In this document: in pieces, positions 3,001-39,400 of the stretch
How positions within the stretch are numbered: the stretch's first letter is position 1
Layout of the letters: every line of letters starts with the position of its first letter
From: a virus
Strand: one strand, 5' to 3'
Length of the DNA stretch: 64,000 nt
IMG/VR virus record: IMGVR_UViG_3300042863_002274
The notes under the pieces: generated by a model
The model's database searches: none
What the model was told of the DNA's origin: nothing
What the model saw: only the letters and a program-made list of their open reading frames with translations
Program-made: the position numbers and the translations under genes

Positions 3001-6000
3001 GGATTTATTCTTCCAGATGCGGGCTCAACATTTGTCAGTCGAGACCAATTCGGTGACCTTTTTAAAAATGCCCTTACTAGATGGAGTCTTTCAAAAGAAG
3101 AAAAAGCGTCAGCATGGATGTTTACGCAGCCCGCAATACTAACGCAAGAGCTAGATACGCCGCGCGGTTCTGGTAAGGACATCAGCCCTGTTGACACCAT
3201 TTTAGATGAAAAAGATATTCCGGCTCAATGGGTAGAAGCTTTGCAGGAAGCAATAGACAAATTTTCCGATGGGGATAGCAGTATGCTTCCACCAAGAGAT
3301 TCTGTCGCAAAACTGTGGATGCTTACGGAGCCAGACCTTCGCTCAGACCCGGGCTTGATAACGCATACCGAGTCTCAAGAGCGCAAAAAAACTATTCCAG
3401 ATAGCTACGCGGTTGGAGACACGTATGAGCTTGAAGGCGAAACATGGATAGTCAAAACAAGAAAAAAGAGTAAAGGCAAAAACGTTCAAGTTACTCTAAC
3501 CAAGAGAATGGCGACAGAAGAAAAACCACTCAGTGCATTTTTTGTTGACGAGGCGCAAGACTCAAATGAAATTCTTGAAACAGTGCTCGACAACAATAGA
3601 GCCAATCTTCCGATAGTTGTTGTTGGAGATGATAGACAAGCCGTTTATGCGTTTCGTAACGCGAAAAACATCCTTGAATCCCTAAACGCTGACTATGAAT
3701 TAACAATTACCGAATCTTTTAGATACGGAGAAGTAATTGGGCATTTAACGAACCTTGCCTTGGGTATGCAAAACCTTTACCTTGACAAACAGGGCGTCCC
3801 TCAGTTGCCATGGAAACACGTTAAAGGCAAAGCTCAGGTTGTAGTAAACAGACTGTTCGACCCATTGCTTCCTAAAAAAGATAGAAAAGGTCTGGAGCCG
3901 GTTGACGAAATCGACGATATGACTCGTGAGTTCCTTCTTAAGGACTTGGAAGAAAAGTTTTCAACTCCAGAAAAGCGTTTGAATTTCTCTGTACATACGG
4001 TTGGAAAGAAAGCTGGAGAAAAATTAACACGCAAAGAGCAAGATGATAAATTAAGAGAACTAAGAGACTCCATTCTTGAGCCAAAAGCGGGGAAGATAGT
4101 CGACAGGGTTGAGGAAGCAAATAAAGAAGTTCCAAATCTCCCAACCATGATTCTCTGCAGAACCAACGCAGAAATCATTAACGAAACTCTCAAGTTCATT
4201 AAACTTGTCGTCGATAGTCCAAATGCGAAAAAAGATGATAACGGGTTGCCAATTCTGCCAGAAGTAGTCATTCCTTTAAGCAAGCACGAAGAACTTCTAA
4301 AGTTTACGAGACATCTTGAGTACATCTTTATGCCTCAAGCAGAAAAAAGCAAGCGCGGTCTCCCCGAAGTATCGGGATGGATTGGACCCATCTTCGACCA
4401 GGGAGGACTGAAGAGAGTAATAAATCAGGCTTCAGGACAGCAGGCCAGAAGTGCATACAAACTAATAATGCAGGCCCCTCCTGGCGGCGGCGTGCCTCTT
4501 GGGATATCAGGAATGTTAACCCTTCTTCAGGGCAGACAGAAAATAGAAATAGATGCGAAAACCGGTAAAGAAAAAATTACTGTTATTCCTGCGTCAATTC
4601 TTCCAGAAAGAAAAAGCGTAACGCTTGAGAATTTCAGAATAGAACCAGAAGAAATTGACTCAATATCTAAATTTTCTAAAGCCGCATCCGCCCCTCAAGC
4701 TAAAGAATCTCAACTACAAAGAATTGTAATAATTCCTCCACCCAGCACCTCAACCGATGGTCGAGGTGCTGTATATGCTCAACTTGAAATTATAGGCGGA
4801 GACGAAAAGAAACCCGGAAAACCATCCGGACGCATTATCGTTACCGGTGACGGTGTGGATACCGGTAGACCACAAACACTCCCCGACGGCTCCGAAGCAA
4901 GAAACATACCTCCCAACCAAAGAGTAGGTAACGGTCGCTATAGAAGAGACCTCGAAAAGGTCATCTTGAATCTTGGTTTATCCGACAAGGTAAAGATAAT
5001 GCAAGACGCAGAGAGGGGCGGCCCGCGAGCCGGAGGAAAGCGCAGAGCGTTTGACGGATTTGTAATTGAGGGCGAAAACCTTGAAGAATCAACCAAAATA
5101 TTAAACGACATTGGCCAAGCAATGAGAGATTCGGCTCAAGGCCCTGGTGGAGACGTTGAGATTACGACCATTCAGCTTTCAAAAGGCCGAGAGTCAGATT
5201 TTGTTGCAGTAGCAGAAGACTTGGGAGACCCTAGCGATTCATTGGCTGCAAATATTCCACAAGGACAAGCAGGACTTGCCTTCATGGAGGAAACAAACCT
5301 CATCCATGTGGCGTTTTCTCGTGCGAAAAAAATGATTGACCCAGGTTGGAAGGGGTTCAAGTATTATCTCCACGACGAATCTACAAAAGACGTCAGGGCA
5401 GCAATCAAGAAAGCAGTACAGGACGGCCATATACCGCCAGAACTAGACAAGGGGGCCTTTGGAGACGAAGGCGGTATTCCTCTTCCTAAGTTCTATGCAG
5501 CATTAAACAAGATGAGTCCTGACGATATAGATGAAAATAATCTTCCAGACCGAGCAGCGCTTGATGAAAAAGAAATCGAAATTGACCCCGACCTCGTCTT
5601 TGACGTGGATAAGGATATTAACGATGTCGTTCGTGACCCAAGTGATTACGAATCAGAAGTAGACATAGATGACTTGATTGATGCGGACGAAATGGGAGAC
5701 GATTCTGATGGTCAGATGCGCCTCTCTAGCGGAACCTCAAACTTCCCTGGTCCTGGCCGCCGTCTGTCTAGAAGAATGGGCGTAAGAAGCAGTAGTCGCG
5801 TCACCCCTGGTGCCATAAGTGCTCAAGACCTTGCTGGAATAAGACTCTTTGGAGACCCCAATTCACCCAACAACCGCCGCAAGACGGATTATGCAATGCA
5901 GACGTGGGCTGGATTCAGGGAAAGAGGTATCGAAATAAATGCCGAAGGAAGAGAACAAACAAAAAACGCCATGAAAAAAGTCGGCGAAGCCATGAAGGCT

Positions 6001-7305
6001 CGTCAGAACAGGGTTCGGGTTGGGCGAGTTGGAGACAACTTGCGCAATGATAATCCTTCGGCGGAAACATGGATGCTCTCAGTAGACGCTCTCGCAGAGC
6101 AACTTCGCATTCCAGAAGATTTTAATGGCCAGGGCGAATCCCTTCGTTCTCGTTCTGCGACACGACAAGAGATAGCAAGTCTTTTGGGTTTGAGCGAAAT
6201 GGACAAGCAGAAGATTCAAAATTCCGATGCTGGAGTAAACCACGACGCAGTTCGTCTTTTGGTTGCTGAACTTGGAAATCAACCAGAGCTGGCAGGCTGG
6301 CGCTATTTTGCTCCGGTTTCAAGAGACGAAATCAGAAAGATAATTCCATCCCCAACAGGAGACACGGAAAGTATCACCCCCCAAGTGGACATGGCAATGG
6401 AGAATGCCGGTAGGGCAAACATGCGTGACCGTTTCATTATCGAAACGTTCGGCAAAGACGCCTTCCCTCATTGGTTCGACCAAGATGAAGAAGAAGCCAT
6501 TAGTCCAGCCGAGTACTCTCAATTGGGTGAGGTCGACGAGAGGGCGAAGTTCCGTGCAACAGGACGATTTGCCCCCGATGACCCATTTGAGGGCGACTCT
6601 GAAGCCGAAATTGACCTTTATGGACAAAGCTTTGACGAACTTGAGAATCCTCCATCCTTGTCTGCCGATGATGAAATAATCAAACTTGATAAAACAGATA
6701 AAAAAGACTTTGAGATTGAGCCTTTGCTTAAATATCTAGGAATAGATAAGAAAGAGTGGAGAACCAGACTTAGTGAAATTCTTTCTGAAAAGTTTGGAAC
6801 CGATAGTACTGGAGTCAACCCTGAGTGGGAAAAGCAGGGAATCCCAACCGCAACTATTGCTCACATGATTCGTAAAGGAGTCCTGCCAAATGCGGCAGAC
6901 GTCTGGAAGGACGGCAAGGCAGGGAAACTGTTTGACGAAGAGATGGAAAGACCCAAGTATGCGGTTTATGAAGCCCTTAACGAATTCATAGACAGAAGCT
7001 TCCCGAACAGCAGACTCAACAGCAAAGAAAACCGTAACAAAATAGTCGGCGCGACAGATATGGGTACCGCACTTCGCGATGCTGCTGCTGCAAAAGGTTC
7101 AGCCTGGAGTGCAAAGAAAGGCAACGAGCCAAGGTTCGCTGTTTCTGAAATGCAAACAATGGTTGACAGGTTTAACGAGATATTCGGAACGGACCATACT
7201 CTTGAAGACATTTTCAGCGCCGAGCAATTAAGAAACGCTAAAACCAGAATTGAAAACGGCGAAACGCTGTCAGGTAAAAAAAGAAAGCCAAAACAGGCTG
7301 ATTAA
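16..7305 (+). CDS. Giant polyvalent protein (5'-truncated): ArdC-like antirestriction module (ssDNA-binding N domain plus HExxH zincin), UvrD-like SF1 helicase and unknown domains, separated by [RK][LF]SSG
   Basis: Frame is open from base 1. ArdC-like motifs: WKLPW, NPTRGRVYQGMN, AFYRPSTDKIHMP, HETVH, YAFEELIAEIGSAF. SF1 motifs: AGAGTGKTT, VDEAQD, VGDDRQAVY, SFRYG, ILCRTN, TIQLSKGRE, NLIHVAFSRAK. Confidence 0.85.
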   Translation: MPVVPKFAFMVKQALDPIFDYHGVESFVDVDGIVMTSGISYDLIDAVDTAVDNLKKKSINQNDIEWKAASYRLGRAIGGRLTNKPNIGGGRSAGRFFTSIGAEDFDPFSARDANLNGIVGEGLFLRGVALATPDPTPDGPGSIRNPKPSRAQVRKPESEILDRAGDGKVKPVGSKLSSGKLFDVPRIDDPDVDSATKYGSAESQRDELQGVLDGASDKDQIKRLKQAIAELDKYMKSVEKTVEGDMEREKRPTKPKAPQVLNRENTQLARGIKPQRIPIASQSMTSVERFSSGKLPDKAQLPEGSSQLKEFYEAMAEDVVKLLTELMNDPNKDKNWKLPWRRPELYARNPTRGRVYQGMNQMTLGLVAKSRGYELPRWAGEGQWKKLGGKLKPGGRKMGVSILVPREGRTFTDINGKEVVEGRYYEVQTVYNVAEVAGLPKKFYEPIDADINQETRLEDLENVIKEIGPDFVESFGEDAFYRPSTDKIHMPAFEQFVDATAFYGTAMHETVHWTSHPTRLNRTLGKEFGDEQYAFEELIAEIGSAFALGAMGIEPTIRDNHLVYVAGWLKKLTADPLALHRAILSAQQANDFLLDRSSTMRRLAGIPDDERKGKDNAWLEVPMLAGYEDSPRIKPTTGVSGTMEDMLDVEFPQDFAPEARRTSTAEREMSSLSRNLPTKTKDGIVITPSGRLSSGRGPIKGKNPNAPEIKPIDETVALRLAFGLSNEPTEEQRDIMAVAMNLIRNKDPRILSILAGAGTGKTTTLKSIAWGLQREFDLWPEGDLRRPEQLRYLSDRYGVDFSGMSAEQVKESVEKLAEEKSINNLYYAVFNKKNQFEAELEFPRNTGVSTTDKIWYWSLKLGQGDKKYGTGMRRKMQFALISPTDRKVNNPGAKNPKFISEALTPDEPERLLPQQVRELFDGTTESFDGIEPGYRSLGWTRLDTGSDWKEFLDFADEKRWKGQETRPTSVPILDDKGKPVRDAKGKIQTTMEDSSGFILPDAGSTFVSRDQFGDLFKNALTRWSLSKEEKASAWMFTQPAILTQELDTPRGSGKDISPVDTILDEKDIPAQWVEALQEAIDKFSDGDSSMLPPRDSVAKLWMLTEPDLRSDPGLITHTESQERKKTIPDSYAVGDTYELEGETWIVKTRKKSKGKNVQVTLTKRMATEEKPLSAFFVDEAQDSNEILETVLDNNRANLPIVVVGDDRQAVYAFRNAKNILESLNADYELTITESFRYGEVIGHLTNLALGMQNLYLDKQGVPQLPWKHVKGKAQVVVNRLFDPLLPKKDRKGLEPVDEIDDMTREFLLKDLEEKFSTPEKRLNFSVHTVGKKAGEKLTRKEQDDKLRELRDSILEPKAGKIVDRVEEANKEVPNLPTMILCRTNAEIINETLKFIKLVVDSPNAKKDDNGLPILPEVVIPLSKHEELLKFTRHLEYIFMPQAEKSKRGLPEVSGWIGPIFDQGGLKRVINQASGQQARSAYKLIMQAPPGGGVPLGISGMLTLLQGRQKIEIDAKTGKEKITVIPASILPERKSVTLENFRIEPEEIDSISKFSKAASAPQAKESQLQRIVIIPPPSTSTDGRGAVYAQLEIIGGDEKKPGKPSGRIIVTGDGVDTGRPQTLPDGSEARNIPPNQRVGNGRYRRDLEKVILNLGLSDKVKIMQDAERGGPRAGGKRRAFDGFVIEGENLEESTKILNDIGQAMRDSAQGPGGDVEITTIQLSKGRESDFVAVAEDLGDPSDSLAANIPQGQAGLAFMEETNLIHVAFSRAKKMIDPGWKGFKYYLHDESTKDVRAAIKKAVQDGHIPPELDKGAFGDEGGIPLPKFYAALNKMSPDDIDENNLPDRAALDEKEIEIDPDLVFDVDKDINDVVRDPSDYESEVDIDDLIDADEMGDDSDGQMRLSSGTSNFPGPGRRLSRRMGVRSSSRVTPGAISAQDLAGIRLFGDPNSPNNRRKTDYAMQTWAGFRERGIEINAEGREQTKNAMKKVGEAMKARQNRVRVGRVGDNLRNDNPSAETWMLSVDALAEQLRIPEDFNGQGESLRSRSATRQEIASLLGLSEMDKQKIQNSDAGVNHDAVRLLVAELGNQPELAGWRYFAPVSRDEIRKIIPSPTGDTESITPQVDMAMENAGRANMRDRFIIETFGKDAFPHWFDQDEEEAISPAEYSQLGEVDERAKFRATGRFAPDDPFEGDSEAEIDLYGQSFDELENPPSLSADDEIIKLDKTDKKDFEIEPLLKYLGIDKKEWRTRLSEILSEKFGTDSTGVNPEWEKQGIPTATIAHMIRKGVLPNAADVWKDGKAGKLFDEEMERPKYAVYEALNEFIDRSFPNSRLNSKENRNKIVGATDMGTALRDAAAAKGSAWSAKKGNEPRFAVSEMQTMVDRFNEIFGTDHTLEDIFSAEQLRNAKTRIENGETLSGKKRKPKQAD

Positions 7306-9082: not shown

Positions 9083-12000
9083 ATGGTGGATGCCCCTATA
9101 AATAGGGAAAGAATCGTAGTTTCGGCGCGGCTTATCGTGCCTTTGTCGTGCTGCGGTGGATTCAACGAAAAAGCACTTCGCTTTAGGCAGTCAATAAATT
9201 CTTCTGTATCTACTGGAAGACTAGAGCCAGAACTTGCATTAAAAGCAGTCGGTGACGTTTTTAGTTTAAGAAAAAAAACAGCCGAAGATACTGATAATAA
9301 AAAAAGAGAATTCACTGGAGACACTCGTCCCGGTGTTGCCTCAAATGAGTTCGGCTATCGCTGGGACAAATCAGCCAAGTGGGAACCAGGCTCTCGTCTT
9401 GTCATAAGCCCGTCGTATACGTCGCGCATGGGAATGGGAACCATGCCGAACGTGGGTTGGATTCCTAGAGACGAAAATCAACCAAAGTCTTTTCAGGAAA
9501 TGATTTCGAGAATTCAATCAGAACCTCAGATTCAGTTACGAAAATTTAAAGTAAATCCAAAAACTGACGACATAATCCCTGAGTCAGAAAAGATAATTGA
9601 CCCTTTTGCTATTTCTTCCGGCATGACCATGGAAGAAAGACGAAATGCTCAAAGAAAATATCAAATCGATAATCCTGAAGAAAAAAGACTTCCAGGCGCG
9701 AGTCTTGAATCACGAGTTCCGGGAGGCTCTCTTTTAAGTAGAGCAGCAGCTGTTTTTGGTATCCTGAGAGACGAGAACAACAAGTTTCGATGCCCTCCAG
9801 GAACTCCGGCAGCAAATCAGTTCACTGACGCAACTGGTTCCAACTGCTTCGGTTTTAGTGCTTCAAAGTTTTCACGTTTCGCAGCAAGGGAAGCAGCCAG
9901 ACTTACGGCAGAAGGCGAATACGAGGGGTTGAGAACAAACGCTAATGCTTTTTTTGGTTACCTATACGGCGGCAGTCAACAAGCAAGAGGCGTTGCAAGT
10001 CCAGAGTTTATTTCCCGATGCGCATACTGGGAAGACCTTTATGGAGACAAATTAAAGCCGCCTTCATGGCGCGACACCCCTGTCACAGAAAATCTTCGTC
10101 TGTTCAAAAACGGAGCAATACGTGCACAGGACGATATTGCGAGACAAAAAGCCTCAGCAGTACGTATCTATGATGCTTTAGGAATCGACCCCAGTGACCC
10201 AAATGCTCATTTCCAGGCTGTCGAAAAATTACAGAAGATGCATGTTGATAGTGACGGTGCTGCTGGATGGGACTTAAAGATTTTAAACACTTCTTCTGGT
10301 GGAGACGCATCTCGTCTAACTGATTTAGAAGTCAGAGAGTTTACTGAAGCAAGACTTAAATCAGTTTCAGGGTGGAATCGTTTATCAAACGAAGAACAAA
10401 AAAGACTTATTGATTCTGACATTAGAAGGTATCAAGAGACAGAACGAGCAATGTTCGAAACACTCTTGGACCAATTCATGCAAAATCCATCAACAGCGAG
10501 AGTGCTTGGAAGAGTTGAATATAACTTTTTATCTGATGACGAAGCTGGAACAGGAATGTACAGAGATGCCCCCTCTATTGTTCCACGATTAAAACCAGAC
10601 GGAACACCAGTTCTTGACAAAGCCGGCAACCCCGTAATGGGCAAAGTTCCCGGAGAACTACGTAGCGTTATTCATATAAACATGAAAGAAATTCTACAAA
10701 ATCAAGAAACAATGCTTCCAAACATGGGACCAGATGAAAGATTGGCAATTTCTGCGATTGGCGCACGAAGCGAAGCCGAAGGTCGTTTAGCGGTTGCAGA
10801 TTTTCTTGTCAACGTAGACCATACCGCAAGAGGAATGGCTGGACTAATTGATGGTGTCTACTCTTTCTCTAGTCACATCATGCTTCACGAGCACGCACAT
10901 AGTATTCAGCTTCAAGTATTCATGGCGAAAATTCAAGAACAGATAGACAGCAAAGGTTTCATATCTGTTCCCATAGTAGACAGAAACGGAATCGTTAAAG
11001 GGACAAGAAACGTAGACTCAATCTACAGACTGTCCGGCGATGACGTTATGGCGATAATGACCGACGTAGCGGACGACATAAACCTGGATTCCTTAAAAGA
11101 CGCCATGGAGCGCATCAAATCTGTGGCACCTCTTGCTGGAGCGTATCCAAGAGATGCATACAAAGAAGGCTCAGAGGTTTGGGCTCTTGAAGTAGCAGCA
11201 GAACTACACGCCCTTCGCGCGAGAGGCATAATATACGGAGACGACATTGACGCAGCTTTAGCCTTTATGGACGACATAGGCGATAGTAGAGCGTCGATTG
11301 ACAGAGCTCTTGGTGACGAGACCGCAGCGCTTGTTGACATGGACGACGTGTTCACTATTCGTCCAGACTCCGTCGTTCCGGACGGCATGCCGGAAGAATC
11401 CATAACAGAAGCGCTAGGGGACAGGGACGAACGCATTGCTTCTGCTCTTCGTGAGGAAATAAAACAATTCAAGACGGGATTCAAAGACCTTCCTGAAGAT
11501 GAAATGATTTCAGAAGCTGCAATTATTGAATCTCAGAGAGATGCTTCAAATAACACGTTAAAGAAACTTAATGATTTCGAGATTGACCCGTCCCTGCCTG
11601 AAGACGAGAAAGAGTCAATAAGGGGATATCTAGAGAATCTTAAGAAGCAAACGCAAATGGAATTGGACTTCCACGACACTAGATACAACGAAGCATCAAA
11701 AGCGTGGAGAAAAAAGTACGGCATCGGAGCTAGAGGAGAAAAAGACAGATTTAAAGAATCCGTTAAGGCAGTCCGTGAAAGAGAAGGACTGTTTGATGAT
11801 GTTGAAATTGAAGAACTTGCAAAAATAGCAGCTCTCGACGACCTTCGTAAGTCTGTAGAAAAAATGCCAGAGAAGAAGATAATTCGACGCCTGGCTGATG
11901 ACGAAATATACCTAAGCACTCTTGACCCATCTTCCGACGAGGCTAAAAACCTAATTGAAAAGATTGACGTCATAAAAGAGCAGTATGTACAAAACATGCG

Positions 12001-15000
12001 TGACGCAGGAGACAAGTCGACGACTGCCAAATTAAAGAAAAACCTAGACCAGAGTGTTAAGGATTTAATTTCTCCTCCAGCAAAAAAGAACGTGTCCTTA
12101 AAGAGCAAGCAAGAAGCAAAAGACCACGCAACAAAAGAACGTCGCCGGGTTCGCGGAACTGCAGAGCAGAAAAAAGCAGTCAAAGAACTCGGAGACATTG
12201 CATCTTCGGACGTAGGACAACTGCTTGACCCTGCGGCTCAGACCAGGGCCGGAAGAGCAATAAACAAAAGAAACGCCAGAATAAAGAGATTGGGACTTAC
12301 GGTTGATGAAAAATCATCTGAAGAAGGCGACGTTGTCCAGCAAGTTCAAAATTTGCTAATTCCAGTCATGGAAGTAATCGACGGAACGTCTATTGCTGAC
12401 CCGTTCGAGATAGAAACAGTTATTGATTTCGATTCAGGAGTTCTACGAGGAAAAATTGAAGGCAAAGAAATTGAAATGCCTCAATTTGTTTCCGGCAAGG
12501 TTCTGACGACGAAAACAAAAAAGCTGGACATGCCAGAAAAAGGAATTCGCGACAAAGAAACTGGGAAAACCGCTCGCCGCGTAGTTGTACAGGTTCGCGA
12601 GGGAGACAGAGGCCTCTTTCCTTCAGCAGGAGAAGACGACCAACGCTTTGTTGCTCCACCTGGACGCCTTCGCATTACGGGGATAGACCCCGACGGAACA
12701 GTAAGAGCAGAGTTGTCTTATCAAAAAGACTCTGTTGAGGTCATTGACTCCATGGCATACAGTTTGGAGACAAACAAAACTGATGCAATTTGGGCGCAGA
12801 GCCACGGTAAAAAAATCAAAGCAGTAGCAGACAAGTACGTTAACTCGCGCCGTGAATCAGGTAAGGAATCTACGGGTTCAAGAAGTGATTACGATTCCGT
12901 CTCAGAAACCTCAAGCAAAACAGTTGTAGACGAGGTTGTGGACGCTGGTGGTTCTTTCGGAGAAGGTTTTGACGAACTACCCCCTCACTTGTCGTCTGAT
13001 GACTCAAGTTCCCGCTTGTCTTCTGGAAAGAAAGACGTACTGGGCGCTCCCGCTACGCGCAAGCAAAGAACAGAATTAAGAAATAAGTCAATGTCTTCTC
13101 AGGTTAGGGAAGTTAAATCCATTCTTGGAGGAGGACAGGGGGACTCGGCTGACCCACTGTCAAGGGGTGACATCCACCCAGACGTTGCTCGTTTAATCGC
13201 CGATACTCCAGAAGAAGACCTGTTAGCAAGAGCCGAGAATACTGCATACAGAATGCATGAAGGTTTCGATAGAAGAGTACGTGTTCGCGCAACAGATGAC
13301 GACATTGAGAGACTTTCTTCCACGGGCTCCATAAGGTCCCCGTTTGCTTCTCCAGACGATGAAGCAAAAAGAACATCACGCAGAGCGCAAAGATACTCAG
13401 GAATGGGTCCAGACGAGCGCTCTTCAAGACTGTCTTCCGGCCGAACTATTGATTCTTCAGAGAATTTAGCTGAAAGAAAAAGGCAAGAAAAAGAAGTTGC
13501 AGTTAAGGCTTTTGAAATATTTGACAAAGTCCTTAACGCCGACGGAAAAAACTTAGACGACATGTCCGAAGCAGAACTCTCTGCGTCTTTCGGTGGGAAA
13601 GTAAAGAAATCTAAGAGAAAATCAGTAAGTGCTACAAACGACTCGCTTTATGAAGTGGACGACGTGCCGACAGCTATTGCGTTAATGATGTTGGGGCATC
13701 ACGTTGCTGTTAAAGACCAGGACCTAAGATTGACCGAGCAATCACAAAAAGCATTTGAAGAAGAAGTTAAAAATGCTGCAAAGAAACATATTGACGCCCA
13801 AAACCCTCACCCTAAATGGGTTCAGTATCAAGAACAGTATAAAAAAGATTCTCCAGATTTAGACTATGGAGACCCTGCAGTTGTCAAGGAAATGGAAAAG
13901 AACTACGTAGACAGCTATCAAGCAGACCTTTGCGCTTTGTATAGTCCGGCACAAAACTTGCTGTGCTCGGGGCATATCGGTATTGATAGAGAAAAAATGC
14001 CTCAGACAAACGGAAGGTCTGCAGGCTACGATACTGTCGCGGTAAGAGCGCTTAAAGCCGGAGAAGCCGCCGGAAAGTTTGAACCTGCAAAGACTATAAA
14101 AAGAAACGCTGCAGTAGACGCAGAGTTCGCAGAAGAACTTAATGCAGCAGTAATTAAAGCCAACGCTGGTCTAGTCAAAAAGGGTAAACCAGAATTAACA
14201 GACGAAGAGATTTCAAAAAAACTTTATGAGATAGTTTCAGAAAAACATTCATTAAGGAATCAATTTGGGGACAAAACACAAGAACAACACAAGGGTGATT
14301 CTTACGACAAAATGTCTGATGCTTCGAAAAATTGGCTATATGAAAACACTGACTGGAACGACACTGAAGTAAACTTGGAGACACCATTCATAGAATGGCT
14401 AAATGGAGTTATTGAGCCAGAAAACGGCGAACCTTCGGTAATCCTTAAAGAGGTAAATCCTGGTGATTATGCTCCATCACAGCAGCAGCTAGTTGCATCA
14501 AAAGTAGACGGTACCGCTAGGCAAATACAAGAAAAAGCCATAGAAGTTGCCGAGGGCATAAGAGCTGATAATCCTGGAATATCGGACGAAGACTTTAGAA
14601 CAAAATACCTAGAAGAAATGAAAAAGCAATGGTTTATGCAGCCCATCCTTACTGCAAGTGATGGGTTTATTGTTGACGGTCACCATAGGTGGGCAGGAAT
14701 AAACGTAGGAAACAGTTCACTTTCGGAAGAATTACGACTCCCTTTGAATGTTAATGAAATACAAACGGACATAATTGAAGCTTTGACCCTAGGAAAAATC
14801 TTCCAAGACGCTTGGGGTATTAAAGAAGCGCGCCTTGGAGCTGAAAACAAGTGGAAAGAGGGAGAAATAACCGACATTAGTAAAAACGAAATATCTCAAC
14901 TCATGGACGGTTTGACCAAAAACGTGGGCACCCTTGTGGACGAAAAGTACGCAGAAGGAAATTTTGTTCAGCTTGGCTCGATTGGTCTTTCAAACAATCC

Positions 15001-16252
15001 AGACTACGCAGCACGAGCCAAGGAAAGACAGACTAGTGCTCTGACAAGAAGACCCGGCCCAGCAGCAAGAGCTCGTGAACTAGAGCTTGATGCAGCCATT
15101 CGTGATGCAGGGAGACAACGTTCGCCAGATGCTCCCGCGGAAAGAGAATCTGTTGGCAGATTGGCAAAAATGCGTAAAGGAAAGAGACTTAGTAGTGGAA
15201 AGACTATCGATGCTCCCGCTTCAGGCAAGACGGTAGGAATGTCTCCTAAAAACTACGCAAGCGAATATTATTCAAGAATAGGTCTACCAAGCTCTCTTGA
15301 CCCAGACATGATGCCAGTAAGTGGATATCTCGTTCATAAATCTCACATAGATGCAAAACGTGCTCAGATTACAAAAGGCGGAATGCCTGGAAATCTCAGA
15401 CCAGATGGTGTGTTTGAAGTAGGGGACGAAGATTTAGTTGGAGACGGCCTAACGGCCTTGGGTGATATGGAAATAGTTTTGCGCCCTGGAGTGTCAAACC
15501 GGGTCGCTTACGGACGAGGCAATGCTCTCACTTCGGCTCACAGGCCCGTAATGCTTAACTCACGTAACAGGGACGACGTAGCTGACGCAATCCTTAATGC
15601 CGACGGAGTAAACGCTGAAGAAACAAAACGAGAAGCCCTTTTACACATGCTCTCTTCTTCTTTGAATAACGATTTTTCAAACGCAAACGCATCAAGAAGC
15701 TCTAGTGGAAAAATGCCATCTTCGTTCGACAAGAAACTACCCGAAGGCTCCACCAGGGAACCTTTTGAGGCTCAGATTTTGGGCGGATTTGACGTTGCTG
15801 ATATCGAACAAATAAACGTTCCGTTGAGCAAGATTGAGGCCGCCTCGGCGAAAGAAGACATTTCCGACGTTGTTGATGCCGTATCGATTGCTGACAAGTT
15901 AAGAAAAGCCGGATTTTCTCAAGAAGAAATTGAATACTTTTACTCTATGGGCGGGGGACAATCGTTAGATACAGCAAGCATGTCTATGCTGCGTAAATAC
16001 AGAGCGTCACAAAAGATGAAAGACGACTTTGCCAAGCGTGGTCTGAATAATGTCAAGTTTGCTCACCCGAATGGTTTCAATATTGAAGACGCTCGTTCTC
16101 ACTCTAAGAGCGCCAAAGCAGGCCAGTCTGTTGAGTCAACCCTCAAGGACTCTATAGCTGAGGAAATTATTGCAGCAGCGAAAGACTTGCTCAAAGAAAT
16201 GAAAAAAACAAACAAGCCAAAAGTTACATCTATATTCGGAGGAAAACTATGA
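9083..16252 (+). CDS. Giant polyvalent head-module protein: HExxH zincin, degenerate ART-like segment, ParB/Srx-like module and DUF3626-like domain, with RLSSG linkers
   Basis: HEHAH at 10886-10900 followed by ALEVAAE. PILTASDGFIVDGHHRW at about 14640-14690. PVSGYL...GDMEIVLRPGVSNRVAYGRGNAL...FEAQILGG in the C-terminal part. Confidence 0.7.
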   Translation: MVDAPINRERIVVSARLIVPLSCCGGFNEKALRFRQSINSSVSTGRLEPELALKAVGDVFSLRKKTAEDTDNKKREFTGDTRPGVASNEFGYRWDKSAKWEPGSRLVISPSYTSRMGMGTMPNVGWIPRDENQPKSFQEMISRIQSEPQIQLRKFKVNPKTDDIIPESEKIIDPFAISSGMTMEERRNAQRKYQIDNPEEKRLPGASLESRVPGGSLLSRAAAVFGILRDENNKFRCPPGTPAANQFTDATGSNCFGFSASKFSRFAAREAARLTAEGEYEGLRTNANAFFGYLYGGSQQARGVASPEFISRCAYWEDLYGDKLKPPSWRDTPVTENLRLFKNGAIRAQDDIARQKASAVRIYDALGIDPSDPNAHFQAVEKLQKMHVDSDGAAGWDLKILNTSSGGDASRLTDLEVREFTEARLKSVSGWNRLSNEEQKRLIDSDIRRYQETERAMFETLLDQFMQNPSTARVLGRVEYNFLSDDEAGTGMYRDAPSIVPRLKPDGTPVLDKAGNPVMGKVPGELRSVIHINMKEILQNQETMLPNMGPDERLAISAIGARSEAEGRLAVADFLVNVDHTARGMAGLIDGVYSFSSHIMLHEHAHSIQLQVFMAKIQEQIDSKGFISVPIVDRNGIVKGTRNVDSIYRLSGDDVMAIMTDVADDINLDSLKDAMERIKSVAPLAGAYPRDAYKEGSEVWALEVAAELHALRARGIIYGDDIDAALAFMDDIGDSRASIDRALGDETAALVDMDDVFTIRPDSVVPDGMPEESITEALGDRDERIASALREEIKQFKTGFKDLPEDEMISEAAIIESQRDASNNTLKKLNDFEIDPSLPEDEKESIRGYLENLKKQTQMELDFHDTRYNEASKAWRKKYGIGARGEKDRFKESVKAVREREGLFDDVEIEELAKIAALDDLRKSVEKMPEKKIIRRLADDEIYLSTLDPSSDEAKNLIEKIDVIKEQYVQNMRDAGDKSTTAKLKKNLDQSVKDLISPPAKKNVSLKSKQEAKDHATKERRRVRGTAEQKKAVKELGDIASSDVGQLLDPAAQTRAGRAINKRNARIKRLGLTVDEKSSEEGDVVQQVQNLLIPVMEVIDGTSIADPFEIETVIDFDSGVLRGKIEGKEIEMPQFVSGKVLTTKTKKLDMPEKGIRDKETGKTARRVVVQVREGDRGLFPSAGEDDQRFVAPPGRLRITGIDPDGTVRAELSYQKDSVEVIDSMAYSLETNKTDAIWAQSHGKKIKAVADKYVNSRRESGKESTGSRSDYDSVSETSSKTVVDEVVDAGGSFGEGFDELPPHLSSDDSSSRLSSGKKDVLGAPATRKQRTELRNKSMSSQVREVKSILGGGQGDSADPLSRGDIHPDVARLIADTPEEDLLARAENTAYRMHEGFDRRVRVRATDDDIERLSSTGSIRSPFASPDDEAKRTSRRAQRYSGMGPDERSSRLSSGRTIDSSENLAERKRQEKEVAVKAFEIFDKVLNADGKNLDDMSEAELSASFGGKVKKSKRKSVSATNDSLYEVDDVPTAIALMMLGHHVAVKDQDLRLTEQSQKAFEEEVKNAAKKHIDAQNPHPKWVQYQEQYKKDSPDLDYGDPAVVKEMEKNYVDSYQADLCALYSPAQNLLCSGHIGIDREKMPQTNGRSAGYDTVAVRALKAGEAAGKFEPAKTIKRNAAVDAEFAEELNAAVIKANAGLVKKGKPELTDEEISKKLYEIVSEKHSLRNQFGDKTQEQHKGDSYDKMSDASKNWLYENTDWNDTEVNLETPFIEWLNGVIEPENGEPSVILKEVNPGDYAPSQQQLVASKVDGTARQIQEKAIEVAEGIRADNPGISDEDFRTKYLEEMKKQWFMQPILTASDGFIVDGHHRWAGINVGNSSLSEELRLPLNVNEIQTDIIEALTLGKIFQDAWGIKEARLGAENKWKEGEITDISKNEISQLMDGLTKNVGTLVDEKYAEGNFVQLGSIGLSNNPDYAARAKERQTSALTRRPGPAARARELELDAAIRDAGRQRSPDAPAERESVGRLAKMRKGKRLSSGKTIDAPASGKTVGMSPKNYASEYYSRIGLPSSLDPDMMPVSGYLVHKSHIDAKRAQITKGGMPGNLRPDGVFEVGDEDLVGDGLTALGDMEIVLRPGVSNRVAYGRGNALTSAHRPVMLNSRNRDDVADAILNADGVNAEETKREALLHMLSSSLNNDFSNANASRSSSGKMPSSFDKKLPEGSTREPFEAQILGGFDVADIEQINVPLSKIEAASAKEDISDVVDAVSIADKLRKAGFSQEEIEYFYSMGGGQSLDTASMSMLRKYRASQKMKDDFAKRGLNNVKFAHPNGFNIEDARSHSKSAKAGQSVESTLKDSIAEEIIAAAKDLLKEMKKTNKPKVTSIFGGKL

Positions 16253-24528: not shown

Positions 24529-24549
24529 GGCTAAATCCTATACTCGTTG

Positions 24550-24565
24550 CGCGTCGGGCAGGGCT
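24550..24565 (-). pseudogene. 3' remnant (T-arm 3' strand plus acceptor) of a disrupted tRNA-Arg
   Basis: Minus strand reads AGC CCTGC CCGACGC G. CCGACGC is complementary to the GCGTCGG acceptor at 25149-25155. Confidence 0.7.
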
Positions 24566-24581
24566 TAGGCTTTGTAAGATT

Positions 24582-24656
24582 TGGTGCCCCATGAGAGAAT
24601 CGAACTCCCGTAAAATGCTTAGAAGGCATTGACTTTATCCACTAAGTTAATGGGGC
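24582..24656 (-). tRNA. tRNA-Arg (UCU)
   Basis: GCCCCAT acceptor, AATGC-CTTCTAA-GCATT anticodon arm, TTCGATT T-loop, encoded CCA. Confidence 0.9.
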
Positions 24657-25109
24657 CCGATATGAGTGCTTTGCCCAGTTAAATTGTTGTGCCGTTCTAA
24701 TTTTATGACAATTTGCACATACAATATCGCATTTTTTAATTTCTTCGTATGCCGCTTTGTCTCTTCCAGTATTTACCAAGTGAGACACATTGTACTCTTT
24801 TTCCCCACGATGGTCAAATTCTAAAACACGGATATCACTATTTCCGCAGTCCATACATGATTTATCTGCTAACCATTCAATGAATTCTTTTTGAATCCTT
24901 AATTTTCTATCGTACGCTTTGTCGATATAGTATTTTTTATTTTCTTCATAATGCGTCTTAAAATAAACCTTCCTACACTCCCTACAGGAGCTTTGTAACC
25001 CATCTTTTTTTCCTACATTTTTAGCAAAACAATTTTTAGGTTTTACGGTTTTGCACGATGGGCATTCTTTGGTCATATTTAAATTGTACACATTTGGGAT
25101 TCTGACCAT
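24642..25109 (-). CDS. HNH homing endonuclease
   Basis: N-terminal CPSC/CREC zinc finger, then CMDCG...LEFDH...KCDIVCANCHKIRT. Confidence 0.85.
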   Translation of the reverse strand: MVRIPNVYNLNMTKECPSCKTVKPKNCFAKNVGKKDGLQSSCRECRKVYFKTHYEENKKYYIDKAYDRKLRIQKEFIEWLADKSCMDCGNSDIRVLEFDHRGEKEYNVSHLVNTGRDKAAYEEIKKCDIVCANCHKIRTAQQFNWAKHSYRAPLT

Positions 25110-25117
25110 TGTTACTT

Positions 25118-25155
25118 TTAGAAGTCTGTTGCCTTATCCCTTGGGCCACCGACGC
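25118..25155 (-). pseudogene. 5' half of a disrupted tRNA-Arg (UCU)
   Basis: GCGTCGG TG GCCCAAGGGATAAGGC A ACAGA CT TCT AA, then breaks off where TCTGT is expected. Confidence 0.8.
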
Positions 25156-25724
25156 TAGAGGGTTGGTTTGTTCTTGCGAGAATGATACAGGTTTCTCTTT
25201 TGTTCGTTCAGTTTGTCCCGGTTCACGCGGTTGTACTCCTTCATGGACTCAATGTTTTTCCCTTTCCTTTTTAAGTCATTGATTCGTTTGCATTCCCTGC
25301 AGACCCTATATTCTTCACCAATTTGCCTGCCCTGTTTCTTTACATATACAAGAGGTTCGAACTCCTCAAAAGAATGACCCTTTTTACAGTGAGTCTGTTT
25401 TTTCGTCTGAGGGGGATTTCTTCCTTTTTTGAACATGTCCTTCATGTTTCCTGAATTTGTATCTAGAAAAAGATGTTCGGGGTTAACGCACGGCGGGTTG
25501 TCGCAATGGTGGCAGACAAGTAGGCCCTTTGGTACTTCACCTATATGAAAAAGGTAGCTTGAAACATGAGCCCCAATCGCCGGCCTGTCTTGGTAGTACT
25601 TGAACGAACCATACCCCTTACTCGTTGGTGCGCCAGTCCAAATCCAGCAATCTGGAAATTTATCGTTACCAGACTTATCGACCTTCTGAAAAAATCTTTC
25701 AATGAGAGGCATATTCTTAGCCAT
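25155..25724 (-). CDS. HNH endonuclease
   Basis: RFFQKVDKS...CWIWTG...VCHHCDNPPCVNPEHL...N, then THCKKGH. Start placed at the ATG overlapping the upstream stop. Confidence 0.88.
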   Translation of the reverse strand: MAKNMPLIERFFQKVDKSGNDKFPDCWIWTGAPTSKGYGSFKYYQDRPAIGAHVSSYLFHIGEVPKGLLVCHHCDNPPCVNPEHLFLDTNSGNMKDMFKKGRNPPQTKKQTHCKKGHSFEEFEPLVYVKKQGRQIGEEYRVCRECKRINDLKRKGKNIESMKEYNRVNRDKLNEQKRNLYHSRKNKPTL

Positions 25725-26349
25725 TTTTTTTCTTTTCGTTTCTAATTCGCATACACTCCGCGCACGTCCGATACTTTCGCCCACTTTTTTTCACGAACCA
25801 CTTCTCCCCATAAACACTAAAGTCATGACCTTTTCTACAGTGGTTTAGTTTTTTAGGCTCTATTCCCTTTTCCTCGCGTCTGCGCGCAAGTCGCTCTTTC
25901 TTCCATCTTTTGTGACAAGCCTTACAATCCCGTGTGACAAAACCGGTATGTTTGCTGATTCTGTGGATTGTGTTTTCCTCATCATAGAGATGACCGTGTT
26001 TGCAGTGCGTCTTTCTGCTCTCTTTATGATTCCCGTGCGTAACCGAATAGCGCTGATTGTGAGAACGGGTCTCAGCTTCTAAATGGTCCGGACGAACACA
26101 TGGAGGGTTGTTACATGTATGGCAAACTTCGCGCCCTTCTGGGACTCGCTTGCCATTTGCTTTTTGCCAGCTATAAACATGGGCACCAAGTTTCTTGTTT
26201 ACCCCATCTTGCTTGATTGCAAAGTGACCATATTTTTTCACAACATAGCCAGTCCATTCCCAACAGTCTGGATAATCTGGATTAGGTCCAGATTTGTCTA
26301 CCTTCTCCCAGAAACGTTCTTCTTCTGGTATTGGTTTTCTTCCTGCCAT
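25717..26349 (-). CDS. HNH endonuclease (paralog of the adjacent gene)
   Basis: RFWEKVDKS...CWEWTG...VCHTCNNPPCVRPDHL...N, plus two HC(K/R)xGH zinc modules. Confidence 0.88.
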   Translation of the reverse strand: MAGRKPIPEEERFWEKVDKSGPNPDYPDCWEWTGYVVKKYGHFAIKQDGVNKKLGAHVYSWQKANGKRVPEGREVCHTCNNPPCVRPDHLEAETRSHNQRYSVTHGNHKESRKTHCKHGHLYDEENTIHRISKHTGFVTRDCKACHKRWKKERLARRREEKGIEPKKLNHCRKGHDFSVYGEKWFVKKSGRKYRTCAECMRIRNEKKKNG

Positions 26350-33418: not shown

Positions 33419-36400
33419 ATGTCTTCCGATAATGAATTCCCCATCCCTTTCGAGGAGTCCAGACGCGGTCTGGCGGCTAACCAAGAGGAAAAAGCGGCCG
33501 TAGGGCGACTTGGTCAGTATTTAGCTTCTCGCGGAGTTAATAGACCGACAATCGGCGAAGGGCGCAAAAAAAGAAGAAGCGGCAATATCGAGCTTCCCAC
33601 TGGCGGCAAGCCAGGCCAAAGAAACCCTACCGGTTCGAGAAGAGACGTTGACGGCGATGGCTGGGCAGACGAGGGAACCACCAAGCCAGTATGGGTCGGC
33701 ACCGAGAGTCAAGCAGGTAAGCCAAATACTGTTGCTCGTCTTTCTAGTGGCATGGTGCAACTTTCACCAACAGAGCGGCACGACTATGGCGCTCTTGTGG
33801 CGTCAAAAAAAGTTCAAGCGAAAGACGTCAAAGGCAAAGGCGGAGAATACAGAATAGTCATAACGACATCGGGAACCGTAGCCGCATTTCTTGATTCAGA
33901 CATTGAGAAAGAAAGAAACAACCTTCTCGACAGATTTAACGAGCTAGGCAAAAATCCTTTTACAAACAAAGAAGCCCCCCTTGCATTGAAGGACATTGAT
34001 GACCGGGATGTACTAAGAGGACTGCTCGATGACCAGCGAAAAATTAAACCATCAGCAGGAATGCAGGTCTACCTATCCGGCAAAGGCATTGAAGTTTTCG
34101 GAATAGAAACAAGAGAAAAACACCGCCGTCGTGGATTAGCAACAGAGATGTTTAACTTTCATCGTGAAGTATTTCCCGACCAAGACCTCCAACATAGCGA
34201 CGCGTTGACTGATGACGGTAGGGCTTTTGCCGACGCGACTCCCACTGTCTCCGTATCGGCAAAACTTTCCTCTGGCAAAGGACGTAATACAAAGCTAAAC
34301 GTTACGCGCTATGGAAAAGACGACGAATACGCGCAGGTATCGTCTTTTGAAATTGACGGCAAAGTGTTTGAGATTTCTCGTGGTGGAGACTCTCCCGGCA
34401 GAGACATGTACAACGGTTACATCTCTGCGTTCGACGAGGATAAAAACGTTGCATACATCGACTACAATATGGATACAGAAAACAAGAAAGCCGTTGTGGC
34501 AATGGTTTTCACCGATGAAGAATATCGTCGTCAAGGAATAGCCGAAGCCCTTCTTGATTCTTTTGTGACAGAAAATCCCGACTACGAGATAAGCCCTGGT
34601 GGCACCACCGACGAAGGTGGAGACTGGTGGCGTTCGGTTACTGGTGGGGATGGACCAATAAAAGCAGAAAAAGCTACACAAACGCAAGAAGGTCTCTTTT
34701 CACCACGCAAAGGAGAGCAGGGAGACTCCGGCTCAAGGCTTTCTTCTGGAAAAAAATATCAGGAGATAGTTGATTCCCAGCCATCGTTAAGCGAAGATAA
34801 AAAACAATCGATAGCTAATTTTCTTGATGATATTGTGTCAGAAGAATTTCAAAAAGAAGATATTTATGTGCTTGATACCGGTCCGACGCCACCAAGGCCT
34901 CCCGGAATGCCAGAACCAAAGCCGAGACAAATACTTAAAGACGATGAAAAAAGAACTCTAGAAAAAGAACGAGTTCGCAACTTGTTAGCCGAAGTATTTA
35001 AAGGCGAGATGACCCTAGACAAAGACGTCATCATCACCGCTGACGACGGGACACAATTAAACATAGGAAAAAAAGTCCTAGTAGAAATAATGCCGCAATC
35101 TTCCTATGCGCCAGCGATAAAGGTAAAAAAGGCTTCTGAAAAAGACCTTGCGGAACAGGATGAATTAGGACTGTATGAAGAAAATATAAAAGAGGGTGAC
35201 TTAGTAACAGAACTGCAACTTGAATTCAGGATTAAGCCACTTCCTGAGTACAGCGACGCACTCTTGGCTATATTTAATGATGAAGATGGAAAAAGATACA
35301 TTTCCAGAGAAGACGGTACACCGGCTCTTGCGACGGGATACAGAACATTCATTCAGGTGTCTGGAGATGACAAAGACGTTCGAATTGTCTCTCACGATTC
35401 TTTTTACATCAACAATCGTGCCCAAGGTCAAGGAATTGGGTCTGTTTTTAATGCTAGAAATGAAAAATTATACAACGAACTTGATGTTCGTTCCATAATT
35501 ACTTGGGGTAATTCCGGCAGTGGTTCAACCGGTGCTGTTCATTGGCCAAAAAATGGTTTCTCTTGGGCAGGAGAGAAAGATAAGCAGGATTTTATAAAAT
35601 TAATTGATGAGGCAATCGTCAATACTCCAGAAATGTTTTCTGAAGAAGATAGAAAAAAGATATCTTCCCTGTACAGAAAAAATAACGATACTGGATTGTT
35701 TGAGACGGAAGCCACGGCAGAAGAGTTTGTAGATTTTCCTAAAGCAGACGAAGTTTTTTCTAATGCAAATGCTCAATTCTTCTACTCAAGACCACTAAGA
35801 GAGCTGGCTGGGGCTTCTTCTGGAAGTAGCGGTTCAGCAAGGCTTTCCAGTGGTAGAGCTCCTCGATACCCGCGCGAACCAACGCTGGGTGCTTTCCTTG
35901 AAGGAGCGCAAGAAAGATTTGAAGGCGTTGATTCCTGGGAGGAGTTCAAGGAGCGCTATGCCGAAACCGAAATGGTATTTCTTGACTACGAAACAACCGG
36001 ATTAGATTTCGACGAATTCGGTAAAGCAACCACAAACGGTAACCCAACGCAAATTGGTCTTGTAAGAATGAAGAACGGCAAAGAAATAGGCCGTTTAAAT
36101 CTTTTCATGAACCCCGAACAGCCTCTTGGTGAATGGTCTTTAGCAAACCTTAAAGATGCAGATGGTAATCCAATAACCAACGAATGGCTTGCTACGCAAA
36201 TGCCAATGGCGGAAGCCCATAGACAAGTTGCTGAGTTTATTGGACCAGACGCAATCATTGGTGTACAGAATGCAACGTTTGATAAGAGAGTGCTTGAAGA
36301 TGCGTTAGAAAGAGACGGCATAGATTGGCGTCCTTCTGGCTATCTTGACACAAGAGACATAAGTGCAATGACCTTGCCTGTATGGAGCGAAGAGAGCCCA

Positions 36401-39400
36401 GAAGGTCCCTATATAACCGATAGAGACGGAAATAAAAAACCATCCAGCAGTCTTGCTGCAATAACCGAATATTTGGATGTTGAATTAGGTGAGGGTCACC
36501 ACAACGCCGATGCCGACGCTTTCGCAACCAGTCAGGTTATGCAGAAGATAATCGATAGAGCCATTGAGAACGGATGGTCCACTGACGTCTTGGATAAAGA
36601 AAAAAGAGACGCAAAACTAAAAGCAGACAACGATAAATTTAACGCAGATATTGAAAAGTTTGAATCAGACAAAGAGTCTTTTGTTTCAGCCCAGAAAGAA
36701 GAGGAAAGCACAAGGCTTTCTTCTGGAGCTAGAGCCAAAAGAAGCATTCCGCCGATATCTGAAATTAGGAAAGAAGTAGGGAGATTCTATAGAGAATCAG
36801 AAATGTCAGATGCAGATGTTGTTCGTACGTATCTTCAAATTAGAAACCGTGATGCAGAGGAATTATACGAATCAAGACATACTAGCGGCAGGGAAATATC
36901 CGACGAAATAGGTGAGCATTTCTCAAGGTTTCGAGACTTCATAGATAATGAGAGAATCTCAATAGACGGAATGAGCGATAGTGAAATTCTAGAAATCTTA
37001 AAAAAAGGAAAATATCGTTCAACAATAGATTCGTACGACAACGCAATAGACAATATTGGACCTGTTCCCTCAAAGAATTCAAATCGTCTTTCTTCCGGCA
37101 GACAGCGCGAATTAATACCAATGAATGCTCCGTCAAAGGAGCGAAAAGGAACTGGTGCTACTGGCTACAGAACTCAAGACTCTTCAGGAAATTTGATTAG
37201 TAGGTATTCCTCAACGTGGCTTTCCGGTTTGAGTTCTGATGAAATTTCTAAGGTTGTTGTTCCTGTCAATGCTGATGAGCATTTCGAGATGTGGGCTGAC
37301 GATATTGCTGGACCAAACTGGCGAGCCAGTAAAAAACAGCAAAAATTCATCAAGAACTACTATGAGGAGCTACAAAAAGACTCAACTAATATTCCTGTTG
37401 ATTATTCTCCAGAATCAATAGCTGCTACCCAGAAATTAGTAAAAGACCTGCTGGATTCTTCCCCTTCTGTTATGTGGGTAATGCAAAACTTCGGAGCACC
37501 ATTGATTGTTCCGTTCACTCGCGAAGGAATGGACGCTTACGAAAACAGTCCAGACATGAAAGAACGACTAGAGCTTCTTGCCAAGCAACGCGGAACAGAA
37601 AAAATCCCATTTGTTAGCGGACTTGCAAATCGTTCCTTGGGGTCTATAGGTATTTCTCCACGAGCCCTGATAGATAGAGAATCGTTACTTAATGACGACA
37701 AGGGTGTTTACCCAATAAGTTTAGACCCAGACCGGGTTCCGGCACCACGAGATGCTCACATAGATAGGTCCCTAGAAGGAACACTCGTTCACGAGTTTGG
37801 ACACTGGATACATCACAGAGCGCTTTGGGATACGGAAACAAACGGCGCTTCAGGAAAAATGCGCTCATATTATGGAACTGGAAAGCTTTCTGACCCAAGA
37901 TACGTAGCTTCGCTTGATGTTGCAGAAGAATACGGTGACTACGAAACTGACGACAAGAGAATAGAAATCTATTCGCAGTTCATCGACCTGACTGGAAGAA
38001 GCCCTGAAGAAATGTTCAGAGCCCACCCCGATGAGCCTCTCCTATCCACCTCTTACGGAAACATAAACAAAAGAGAGGCCATGGCAGAAGCCTTTGTTGC
38101 AATAATGCATCCAAACAAGGAAATGCCAGAAAAGACCCTGAGCAAGAAACTCAGAAAAGACATTTATACGCTAATTGGCGTTGACGAAAAAAACCTTCCA
38201 TGGAGCGATTCTAAAGCTGGCTCGGAAAATCGCCTTTCATCGGGTGCCAAAAAAGACAAACGCAAAACAATTTTCTCAAGATTCAGAAAAGAAGAAACTG
38301 AAGAAGCAACCGTTGAGGAAAAAAGGAAACCTCCAGTAGTGGAGAGACCTGAAGGCCTGGTTTCGTTCGCTACCGAACCGTCAGAAGAATTGCTTAAAGC
38401 CTTACCAATACCTGATGAAGACACCTTAAAGAACGAGTTACTAAAAGACGTACAGTCTATAGCGTTGGAATTCGACAAAGGAGCCTATGGAAGTATTGAC
38501 TCGATAGGGATGGGTTCAAGAGCTTCTATTATTGCCAAGAAAGCAATTACCGCAAACCTGTCTCGCTCGGTAGATTTTGATGTTGAAGATTTTATTAAAG
38601 TTTTTTCTGCAGGCAACGACCGTTTCGGTTTTCACAGTACGGAAACTTTTAAAGCAGTACAAAAAATGTACGAAACTGTAAAAAACCTACCAGCAGATGC
38701 TGCGAGCACGGAAAGAAGAACGGCTGCTAGGGGTGCTTTTGATACAAAAAGCGGACGTATTATTTCGGCAAAAATACATGACGACATTCTTGGTAGAGCA
38801 CGATATTACGACGAAATATTAGACAGGCTAGAAAAAGAAAACTTTGACGAACTTTTTGGCTCCTCTTTTGATGAATTAATGGCTACAGACGGTAGCGAAA
38901 AATCACTTTTTACCCCTTATTTAATGACGAAACTTGGAACTGACGATATTAGAAGAGAGTTTCTAGAAGAGATAGAGCCACGGCGTGGACTTTTAAACCG
39001 CCTTATCGAAGCAGTTGAACTACAAGAAAGTAAAGCTTTCGGGCTTGCCAGAATAGGGGAAATAAATCCCAACACGGGAGAACGCGATTATGAAGTAATT
39101 TCATTACTGGGTCGTGGAGTAAACATGGGCGTCATGGATGCAATGTCGTCTCTTGATATTAGTGATGAAGATTATGGTCAAAAATTTGCAGATATTATGT
39201 CTGAGTTTAAAGGTTGGCTAACGGCAGAAAAACTCATGAAAATACGCGACTCGGGTTTGCTTAAAATAGATAGTTCAAACATTGATTCGCCAGAAATTAA
39301 AAAAGCACTAAAAGAGCATCTAGTAGCAAACGTACGTTCTAGAGCTGGAAATTTTGAATCAAAGCGGGAAAGCTACACAAACAAAACGGGAGTTGTGTTC

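Follow-up and report, generated by a model that had tools for sequence, protein, structure and literature searches.

How does a virus come to carry a tRNA-Arg(UCU) gene broken in two, with a nuclease gene and a second, intact tRNA-Arg(UCU) gene lodged between the halves, and is the insert an intron, a recombination accident or a mobile element? The stretch of DNA analysed here (the window, 64,000 nt) is part of a 92,297-bp virus contig. Profile searches identified among its genes those for a major capsid protein, a class II ribonucleotide reductase and WhiB, from which we infer that the phage host is probably an actinobacterium. Three very large ORFs are also present, at 16-7305 (2429 aa), 9083-16252 (2389 aa) and 33419-42448 (3009 aa). 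The window contains two tRNA genes, Arg(UCU) at 24656-24582 and Met at 47062-47138. Around the former, the minus strand reads, in order, an HNH_3 gene, the 5′ half of a tRNA-Arg, a 41-nt leader, the nuclease ORF, the intact tRNA-Arg(UCU) lying over the ORF stop, a 19-nt trailer, the 3′ remnant of the split tRNA and a gene for a 127-aa protein. The four-part order given in a preliminary description of this DNA was confirmed in all its parts. The features considered below are:

25155..26349, minus strand: two HNH_3 (PF13392) genes identified with Pfam, upstream context outside the cassette
25118..25155, minus strand: resident tRNA-Arg(UCU), 5′ half (nt 1-38), with the same bases as the intact genes of L001-L007
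25099..25124, no strand assigned: inverted repeat of the anticodon-loop heptamer (score 12/14), putative operator over the -35 region
25083..25088, minus strand: -10 box TACAAT, 6 nt before the ATG, of a predicted leaderless promoter
24563..25117, minus strand: inserted cassette, 555 bp, delimited by blastn breakpoints at 24562 and 25118 in each of six comparisons with intact-allele loci
24642..25076, minus strand: gene of a 144-aa HNH-type (ββα-Me) nuclease, called from PHROG 2255, invariant columns, dN/dS and a structure model
24582..24656, minus strand: cargo tRNA-Arg(UCU), intact, with encoded CCA (ARAGORN; Rfam, 64.3 bits)
24547..24562, minus strand: resident tRNA, 3′ remnant (positions 61-76), without mismatches to the 3′ end of the intact genes of L001, L003 and L007

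The 5′ half of the resident tRNA-Arg(UCU) ends with the bases of the anticodon loop, as described previously, and its first base is shared with the stop codon of the upstream HNH_3 gene. The 3′ remnant comprises the 3′ strand of the T stem, the 3′ strand of the acceptor stem and the discriminator. Its presence had been noted correctly, but the match to the intact genes begins only at tRNA position 61, and the T-loop-like letters assigned to it before that point are unmatched. Between the two halves, the 555-bp cassette stands in place of 22 nt (tRNA positions 39-60), a loss previously placed at about nt 39-57. It consists of the leader, the nuclease ORF, the cargo tRNA and the trailer, with ORF and tRNA taking up 495 of the 555 nt. 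The idea that the 19-nt trailer is a decayed copy of tRNA nt 37-60 was unsupported (shuffle p = 0.24).

An exact search of IMG/VR with the 5′ half retrieved seven viral contigs (L001-L007), all of which carry a complete tRNA-Arg(UCU) flanked, as in the window, by the HNH_3 gene upstream and the 127-aa gene downstream; in the three closest, the flanks are 93–94% identical to those of the window. Relatives with the uninterrupted gene, for which the preliminary description had suggested searching, therefore exist, and they give the direction of the event: a cassette split a resident tRNA-Arg(UCU), as had been proposed. The inserted allele is also found in a second sample, an independent ENA assembly (L026) with a nuclease 97% identical to that of the window, which rules out an assembly error. 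Cognate alleles lacking the nuclease gene were likewise found in close relatives of the further loci L011, L017 and L020 and in pairs of cultured phages.

Bacterial tRNA introns occur next to the anticodon, where this insertion lies, and the acceptor strands of the two resident halves still pair. Both features would suit a tRNA intron (group I, group II or enzyme-spliced), or trans-spliced halves, from which the old tRNA is restored. This reading is hardly tenable, since nt 39-60 are gone and no splice can rebuild the tRNA; the deletion already refutes it. Moreover, the 495 nt devoted to ORF and tRNA leave no space for a ribozyme, and no Rfam intron family matches the cassette even at E 5, which together with the 22 missing nucleotides excludes splicing. 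Splicing is also unnecessary, as had been argued earlier, because a whole cargo tRNA is present, conserved and fully pairing. The nuclease ORF, for its part, is a stand-alone frame of 144 codons that lies in no intron or intein and has a -10 box of its own.

The start codon of this ORF is likely the one at 25076, 6 nt after the -10 box, rather than that at 25109. The protein matches PHROG 2255 (HNH) with E 6e-31 and the PHROG EndoVII profiles with E 1e-9. A Pfam search gave no match, HNH included, a PDB sequence search was also empty, and no GIY-YIG domain was found with Pfam or PHROGs. Thus, the earlier designation of an HNH gene agrees with PHROG 2255 and with the conserved motif, on which we base the class assignment, but not with Pfam. 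We collected 1228 homologs. The conserved residues (144-aa numbering) are eight Cys, D88-H89 and H124, while an invariant Lys115 occupies the position of the HNH Asn. The predicted fold (model pLDDT 89) consists of an N-terminal Cys4 zinc finger, a 38-residue helix and a catalytic Cys4 domain. The nuclease shares with Hpy99I, T4 endonuclease VII and PacI a pair of Cys4 zinc sites and the D-H...H motif of a metal finger, and these enzymes are the weak neighbours returned by fold searches (best Foldseek E 0.27, for Hpy99I; VIA Z 5.2, rmsd 2.5, 41 residues aligned); no structural match reaches significance, so their function is not transferable to the nuclease. The dN/dS ratio of about 0.1 (0.009/0.091 against L026 and 0.138/1.32 against L011) indicates that the nuclease gene is under purifying selection. 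Its GC content is 35%, as against 46% for the genome.

The cargo tRNA-Arg(UCU) is about 57% identical to the old resident gene. The nuclease stop codon falls in its D arm, producing a 15-nt overlap; an intact, divergent tRNA overlapping the stop had been recognised before, and the ARAGORN and Rfam calls concur. In six copies of the cargo tRNA, 9 of 21 pairs display two-sided compensatory changes, and 100% of the 126 pair cells are paired. The exact cargo sequence has no match in IMG/VR. Integrative elements that reside in tRNA genes encode an integrase and bring a replacement 3′ fragment, by which the same gene is restored. The cassette is like them in that a tRNA gene is targeted, a 3′ remnant is displaced and tRNA function is kept; unlike them, it has no integrase, leaves the old gene broken and supplies a whole different gene. 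An integrase-mediated tRNA island was rejected, given that the insert holds the nuclease ORF and the tRNA only and that the target is not restored.

The closest homologs of the nuclease are 58–76% identical to it. In a quick tree, used solely for this purpose, six proteins form an Arg(UCU) clade (SH-aLRT 95), and the cargo tRNA is of one type throughout the clade. The cassettes at L011, L017, L020 and L187 come after the 5′ half of a resident Arg(UCU) gene, in each case one unlike the window's and in an unrelated gene neighbourhood; the intact counterparts are L298 for L011, and L301/L303/L307/L310 and L305/L312 for L017/L020. The resident tRNA of L011 has lost only nt 39-45. Comparison of these alleles shows that cassettes of the same clade split at least three different resident tRNA-Arg(UCU) genes, the window's included, and that promoter region, nuclease and tRNA-Arg(UCU) move as one unit, landing directly 3′ of the anticodon loop. 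The nuclease and the replacement tRNA had been taken for a mobile element, and their joint travel into several different resident genes bears this out. Beyond the cargo tRNA in L017 and L020, the resident tRNA recurs at full length in altered form (L017:3500-3570 and L020:2383-2450), with D and anticodon stems that still pair and an anticodon loop of 5 nt; this copy is possibly a processing signal or a decoy.

Association with tRNA genes is a feature of the wider family. A tRNA lies within 150 nt in 133 of 161 non-redundant homologs, and the stop codon is often inside the downstream tRNA, at fixed offsets of -9, -20 and -14. An orphan 5′ half matching the downstream anticodon accompanies 11 of 81 homologs and covers five anticodons (Arg(UCU) 5, Arg(ACG) 3, and Gly, Lys and Met 1 each); nine looser orphan-half matches with other anticodons are mostly attributable to chance under that permissive pattern. 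Left junctions cluster at tRNA positions 38-46, and right junctions range from 46 to 61. Family members split or replace Gly(UCC), Lys(UUU), Arg(ACG) and Met(CAU) genes, also in cultured Streptomyces phages (Wofford compared with Karimac), and include the annotated HNH genes of PegLeg, Bonray, crAss001 and the Streptomyces BE/BK phages.

The region preceding the nuclease gene carries a possible signature of specificity. The left arm of the inverted repeat (25124-25118) is the old anticodon loop itself and is separated by a 12-nt spacer from the right arm (25105-25099), which matches at 5 of 7 positions. A consensus promoter scan at the nuclease start found no full sigma-70 promoter and no consensus -35. 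The loop of the downstream tRNA was then sought in inverted form within 90 nt of the start codon in the 81 homologs that have such a tRNA. A matching repeat occurs in 24 of them, with 0.9 expected on loop permutation (maximum 4 in 300), and in none of 243 control windows inside ORFs; the other 57 homologs have no repeat at the threshold used. Since the positive homologs span nine anticodons, kinship alone cannot account for the match. The spacer is 12–13 nt long in 20 of the 24, and a TAnnnT box is found 5–7 nt before the ATG in 15. Mostly, the repeat overlies the -35 region and precedes the -10 box; in the cyanophage members it comes after a T4-type late promoter. It is kept where the 5′ half is gone (L025, L053, L058, L176, Tribute and Jada); from this persistence, and from its position upstream of a leaderless -10 box, it should act as DNA. 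The matched repeat points to an anticodon-specific DNA recognition and is the best indirect pointer to loop reading by the nuclease.

The target-like sequence thus overlaps the nuclease's own promoter. This recalls I-TevI, which is autorepressed through a copy of its target sequence overlapping its own promoter (PMC2988022), and by analogy we infer that the inverted repeat is an operator for autorepression. The likeness is confined to the copy of the presumed target over the promoter: I-TevI, a monomeric GIY-YIG enzyme encoded in an intron, has a single long, asymmetric operator, whereas the cassette has a short inverted heptamer which changes with the anticodon.

We judge it likely that the element is a compact "cut-and-replace" homing cassette, whose cutting and homing would proceed as follows. 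The nuclease would read tRNA-Arg(UCU) genes as double-stranded DNA, recognising the sequence of the anticodon loop and cutting just 3′ of it; in a mixed infection, the empty allele would be cut and then repaired from the cassette-bearing genome. New resident genes would be invaded through the left arm of the operator, which, being the anticodon loop, offers 7–10 bp of microhomology to the broken end, and we propose that this joining places the ends of the 5′ halves at the loop. As in I-TevI, the nuclease would be autorepressed through the inverted repeat at its promoter, processing of the overlapping tRNA would clip the stop codon from the nuclease mRNA, and the cargo gene would escape cleavage by virtue of different stem bases beside the loop. 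Other family members would have changed their anticodon target along with the operator.

Pairs of cultured phages illustrate what such a process may leave behind. Relative to Karimac, Wofford and Riptide have their second tRNA-Met split after position 41 with both halves kept, the insert consisting of the nuclease and a new tRNA-Met, followed further on by the 3′ remnant; in Wofford an extra gene lies inside the split. In Tribute, compared with EGole, the cargo replaces the 5′ two-thirds of tRNA-Gly and is joined to the resident T arm. JimJam, compared with SaltySpitoon, has the nuclease upstream of a tRNA-Pro that differs mainly in the anticodon stem, and Jada, compared with Gilson, has lost the second Met and carries a different tRNA-Met. 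These pairs suggest that a single process can end in splitting, in partial conversion or in full replacement, and that what it changes is the anticodon arm. Alternatively, they could be products of passive mosaicism: the module would be real and autoregulated, but the nuclease would cut elsewhere or loosely (at any tRNA, like SegB), operator-arm microhomology would lead to illegitimate recombination that splits genes, and the spare tRNA would make such accidents harmless. Operator arm and left junction fall at exactly the same place, the right junctions vary and Wofford has its extra gene, all of which fits this alternative, as do two cases that sit badly with target-specific resistance. One nuclease-bearing isolate of the cyanophage S-CAM3 has a tRNA-Pro identical to that of an isolate without the nuclease, its protein having His for the conserved Asp and no C-terminal tail; and in PumpkinSpice the repeat reads Arg(UCU) while the neighbouring tRNAs are Pro. 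We nevertheless consider passive mosaicism unlikely. The operator copies one specific anticodon loop, which changes in step with the adjacent tRNA in nine anticodons; the nuclease is therefore probably a reader of this loop, which it would also encounter in the resident gene. Moreover, the conversions focused on the anticodon arm in JimJam and Tribute require selection against the old arm.

Two observations belong to these phages. The presence of the nuclease gene differs among S-CAM3 isolates (L284 and L315 compared with L291), and of the two carriers one has a tRNA-Pro that is a chimera, its T stem mispaired, while the other has an unchanged tRNA. The PumpkinSpice nuclease lies between two Pro tRNAs, with an unannotated tRNA-like sequence before it, and its Arg(UCU)-type repeat (L295:470-530) could be a CUA anticodon read one base over.

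For the cut-and-replace reading, the fate of the cargo gene matters. Sequence comparison suggests that the cargo tRNA probably resists cleavage through the differing stem bases beside the loop. JimJam, Tribute and the operator arms that copy the victim's flank point in this direction; the S-CAM3 isolate and L031, where victim and cargo have the same loop-flanking pair, point away from it. The right arm of the operator extends as a G-purine copy of positions 30-31 in all six Arg(UCU) cassettes, and this extension agrees with the victims (GA) and never with the cargo's GC or CT, which fits cargo resistance. In a hand count of 14 victim–cargo pairs, about 12 have different bases at position 39, where random same-anticodon tRNAs differ in 40–75% of cases; a universal resistance rule at pair 31-39 was not significant against such base rates.

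The tight linkage of a same-anticodon tRNA and the anticodon-stem swap in JimJam would also suit an anticodon ribonuclease with an immune tRNA. The protein would then cut the tRNA-Arg(UCU) RNA of the host or of a rival phage, the cargo tRNA would be the antidote, and the resident gene, being sensitive, would be dispensable; there is a precedent in the HNH-containing Septu system, which can cleave tRNA (PMC13096335). Several points make this explanation improbable. The inverted repeat that copies the loop is a DNA feature placed before the -10 box and would be absent from the leaderless mRNA, and repeated landing in the matching DNA gene needs no added assumption if the nuclease cuts DNA. The best, though weak, fold neighbours are DNA endonucleases. 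In addition, a cargo-like G39 was found in two of three actinobacterial genomes checked (a tiny sample) within a comparison of host tRNA-Arg genes that covered five genomes.

The preliminary description had drawn a parallel with T4 SegB, which stands as an analogy but not in its particulars. SegB (T4/T6) is a free-standing GIY-YIG homing endonuclease of the tRNA cluster that recognises a T-arm motif common to all tRNAs, cuts T4's own genes too, and is encoded between tRNA genes with no promoter nearby (PMC2330249; PMC13096335). Like segB, the cassette carries a free-standing nuclease gene in a phage tRNA region, missing from close relatives and abutting a tRNA-Arg gene whose processing may clip the nuclease mRNA, as was proposed for segB (PMC2330249); SegB cuts tRNA genes and spreads with neighbouring tRNAs, and the cassette may be likened to it in this respect. 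Unlike SegB, the nuclease is HNH-type, apparently specific for one anticodon and located inside its target gene, and it comes with a same-anticodon replacement and its own promoter with an operator-like repeat. Free-standing homing endonucleases cleave hundreds to thousands of bp from the insertion site of their gene (PMC2988022), so that a cassette sitting inside its presumed target would depart from the T4 seg/mob pattern. [quoted passage not shown] These share the location with the cassette; the accessible parts of those sources deal with association or cluster spread, and in them no splitting, replacement or anticodon specificity is described. Within our literature search, outside which most subscription papers lie, no description of split-and-replace cassettes or anticodon-copy operators was found.

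Phage tRNA genes and the variability of their anticodon arms are usually explained by codon usage or by escape from host tRNA nucleases. The cassette offers a third, selfish cause, and cultured Streptomyces phages differ by such cassettes. It also illustrates how a homing element can invade a conserved gene without an intron or intein, by bringing a substitute gene. Extended to the family, the argument has about an even chance of being right: widespread nucleases of about 140 aa would each read a single anticodon loop (at least nine loops in all) and spread as a cut-and-replace gene drive, with a palindromic operator advertising the specificity and a resistant isoacceptor on board. They would then be a main force in phage tRNA turnover, duplication and anticodon-arm variation, independently of host anticodon nucleases. 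If the operator predicts specificity, the family offers many natural variants in which protein sequence is tied to a DNA target of 7 bp; and if these proteins are indeed anticodon readers, they constitute a ready-made panel of tiny nucleases with readable specificities.

Some minor observations concern the same protein family. The repeat is found in 0 of 14 members of a chromosomal clade of Solirubrobacterales. This clade (with L117, L123, L193 and other Solirubrobacterales/Thermoleophilia), together with L213, L225 and L231 of Vulcanimicrobiota, belongs to the same nuclease family; the genes of these chromosomal clades lie either between tRNA-Pro(GGG) and tRNA-Gly(UCC) or in front of tRNA-Pro(UGG), have no anticodon repeat and are possibly domesticated. 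At L069 (1880-2060), two tRNAs with the amber anticodon CUA lie downstream of a homolog. L297, L299 and L300 have the same tRNA-Arg body as L298 and L011 with a wholly different anticodon arm and no nuclease, which makes them a possible escape allele. In an Acidimicrobiaceae genome (G001, contig C5), L317 and L319, at 18427 and 22926, have identical anticodon-to-T-arm stretches of tRNA-Arg(UCU) 4.5 kb apart, perhaps marking a small island.

In the window itself, the tandem HNH_3 pair (25155-26349) comes after the ribonucleotide reductase gene, and its cassette-proximal member is also found in the intact-allele relatives. The HNH_3 region measures about 800 nt in the window compared with about 155 nt in the closest relatives, and the 428 nt adjoining the cassette show 83% identity, as against 93–94% in the flanks. 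This difference could reflect either a second, separate nuclease gain or a conversion tract.
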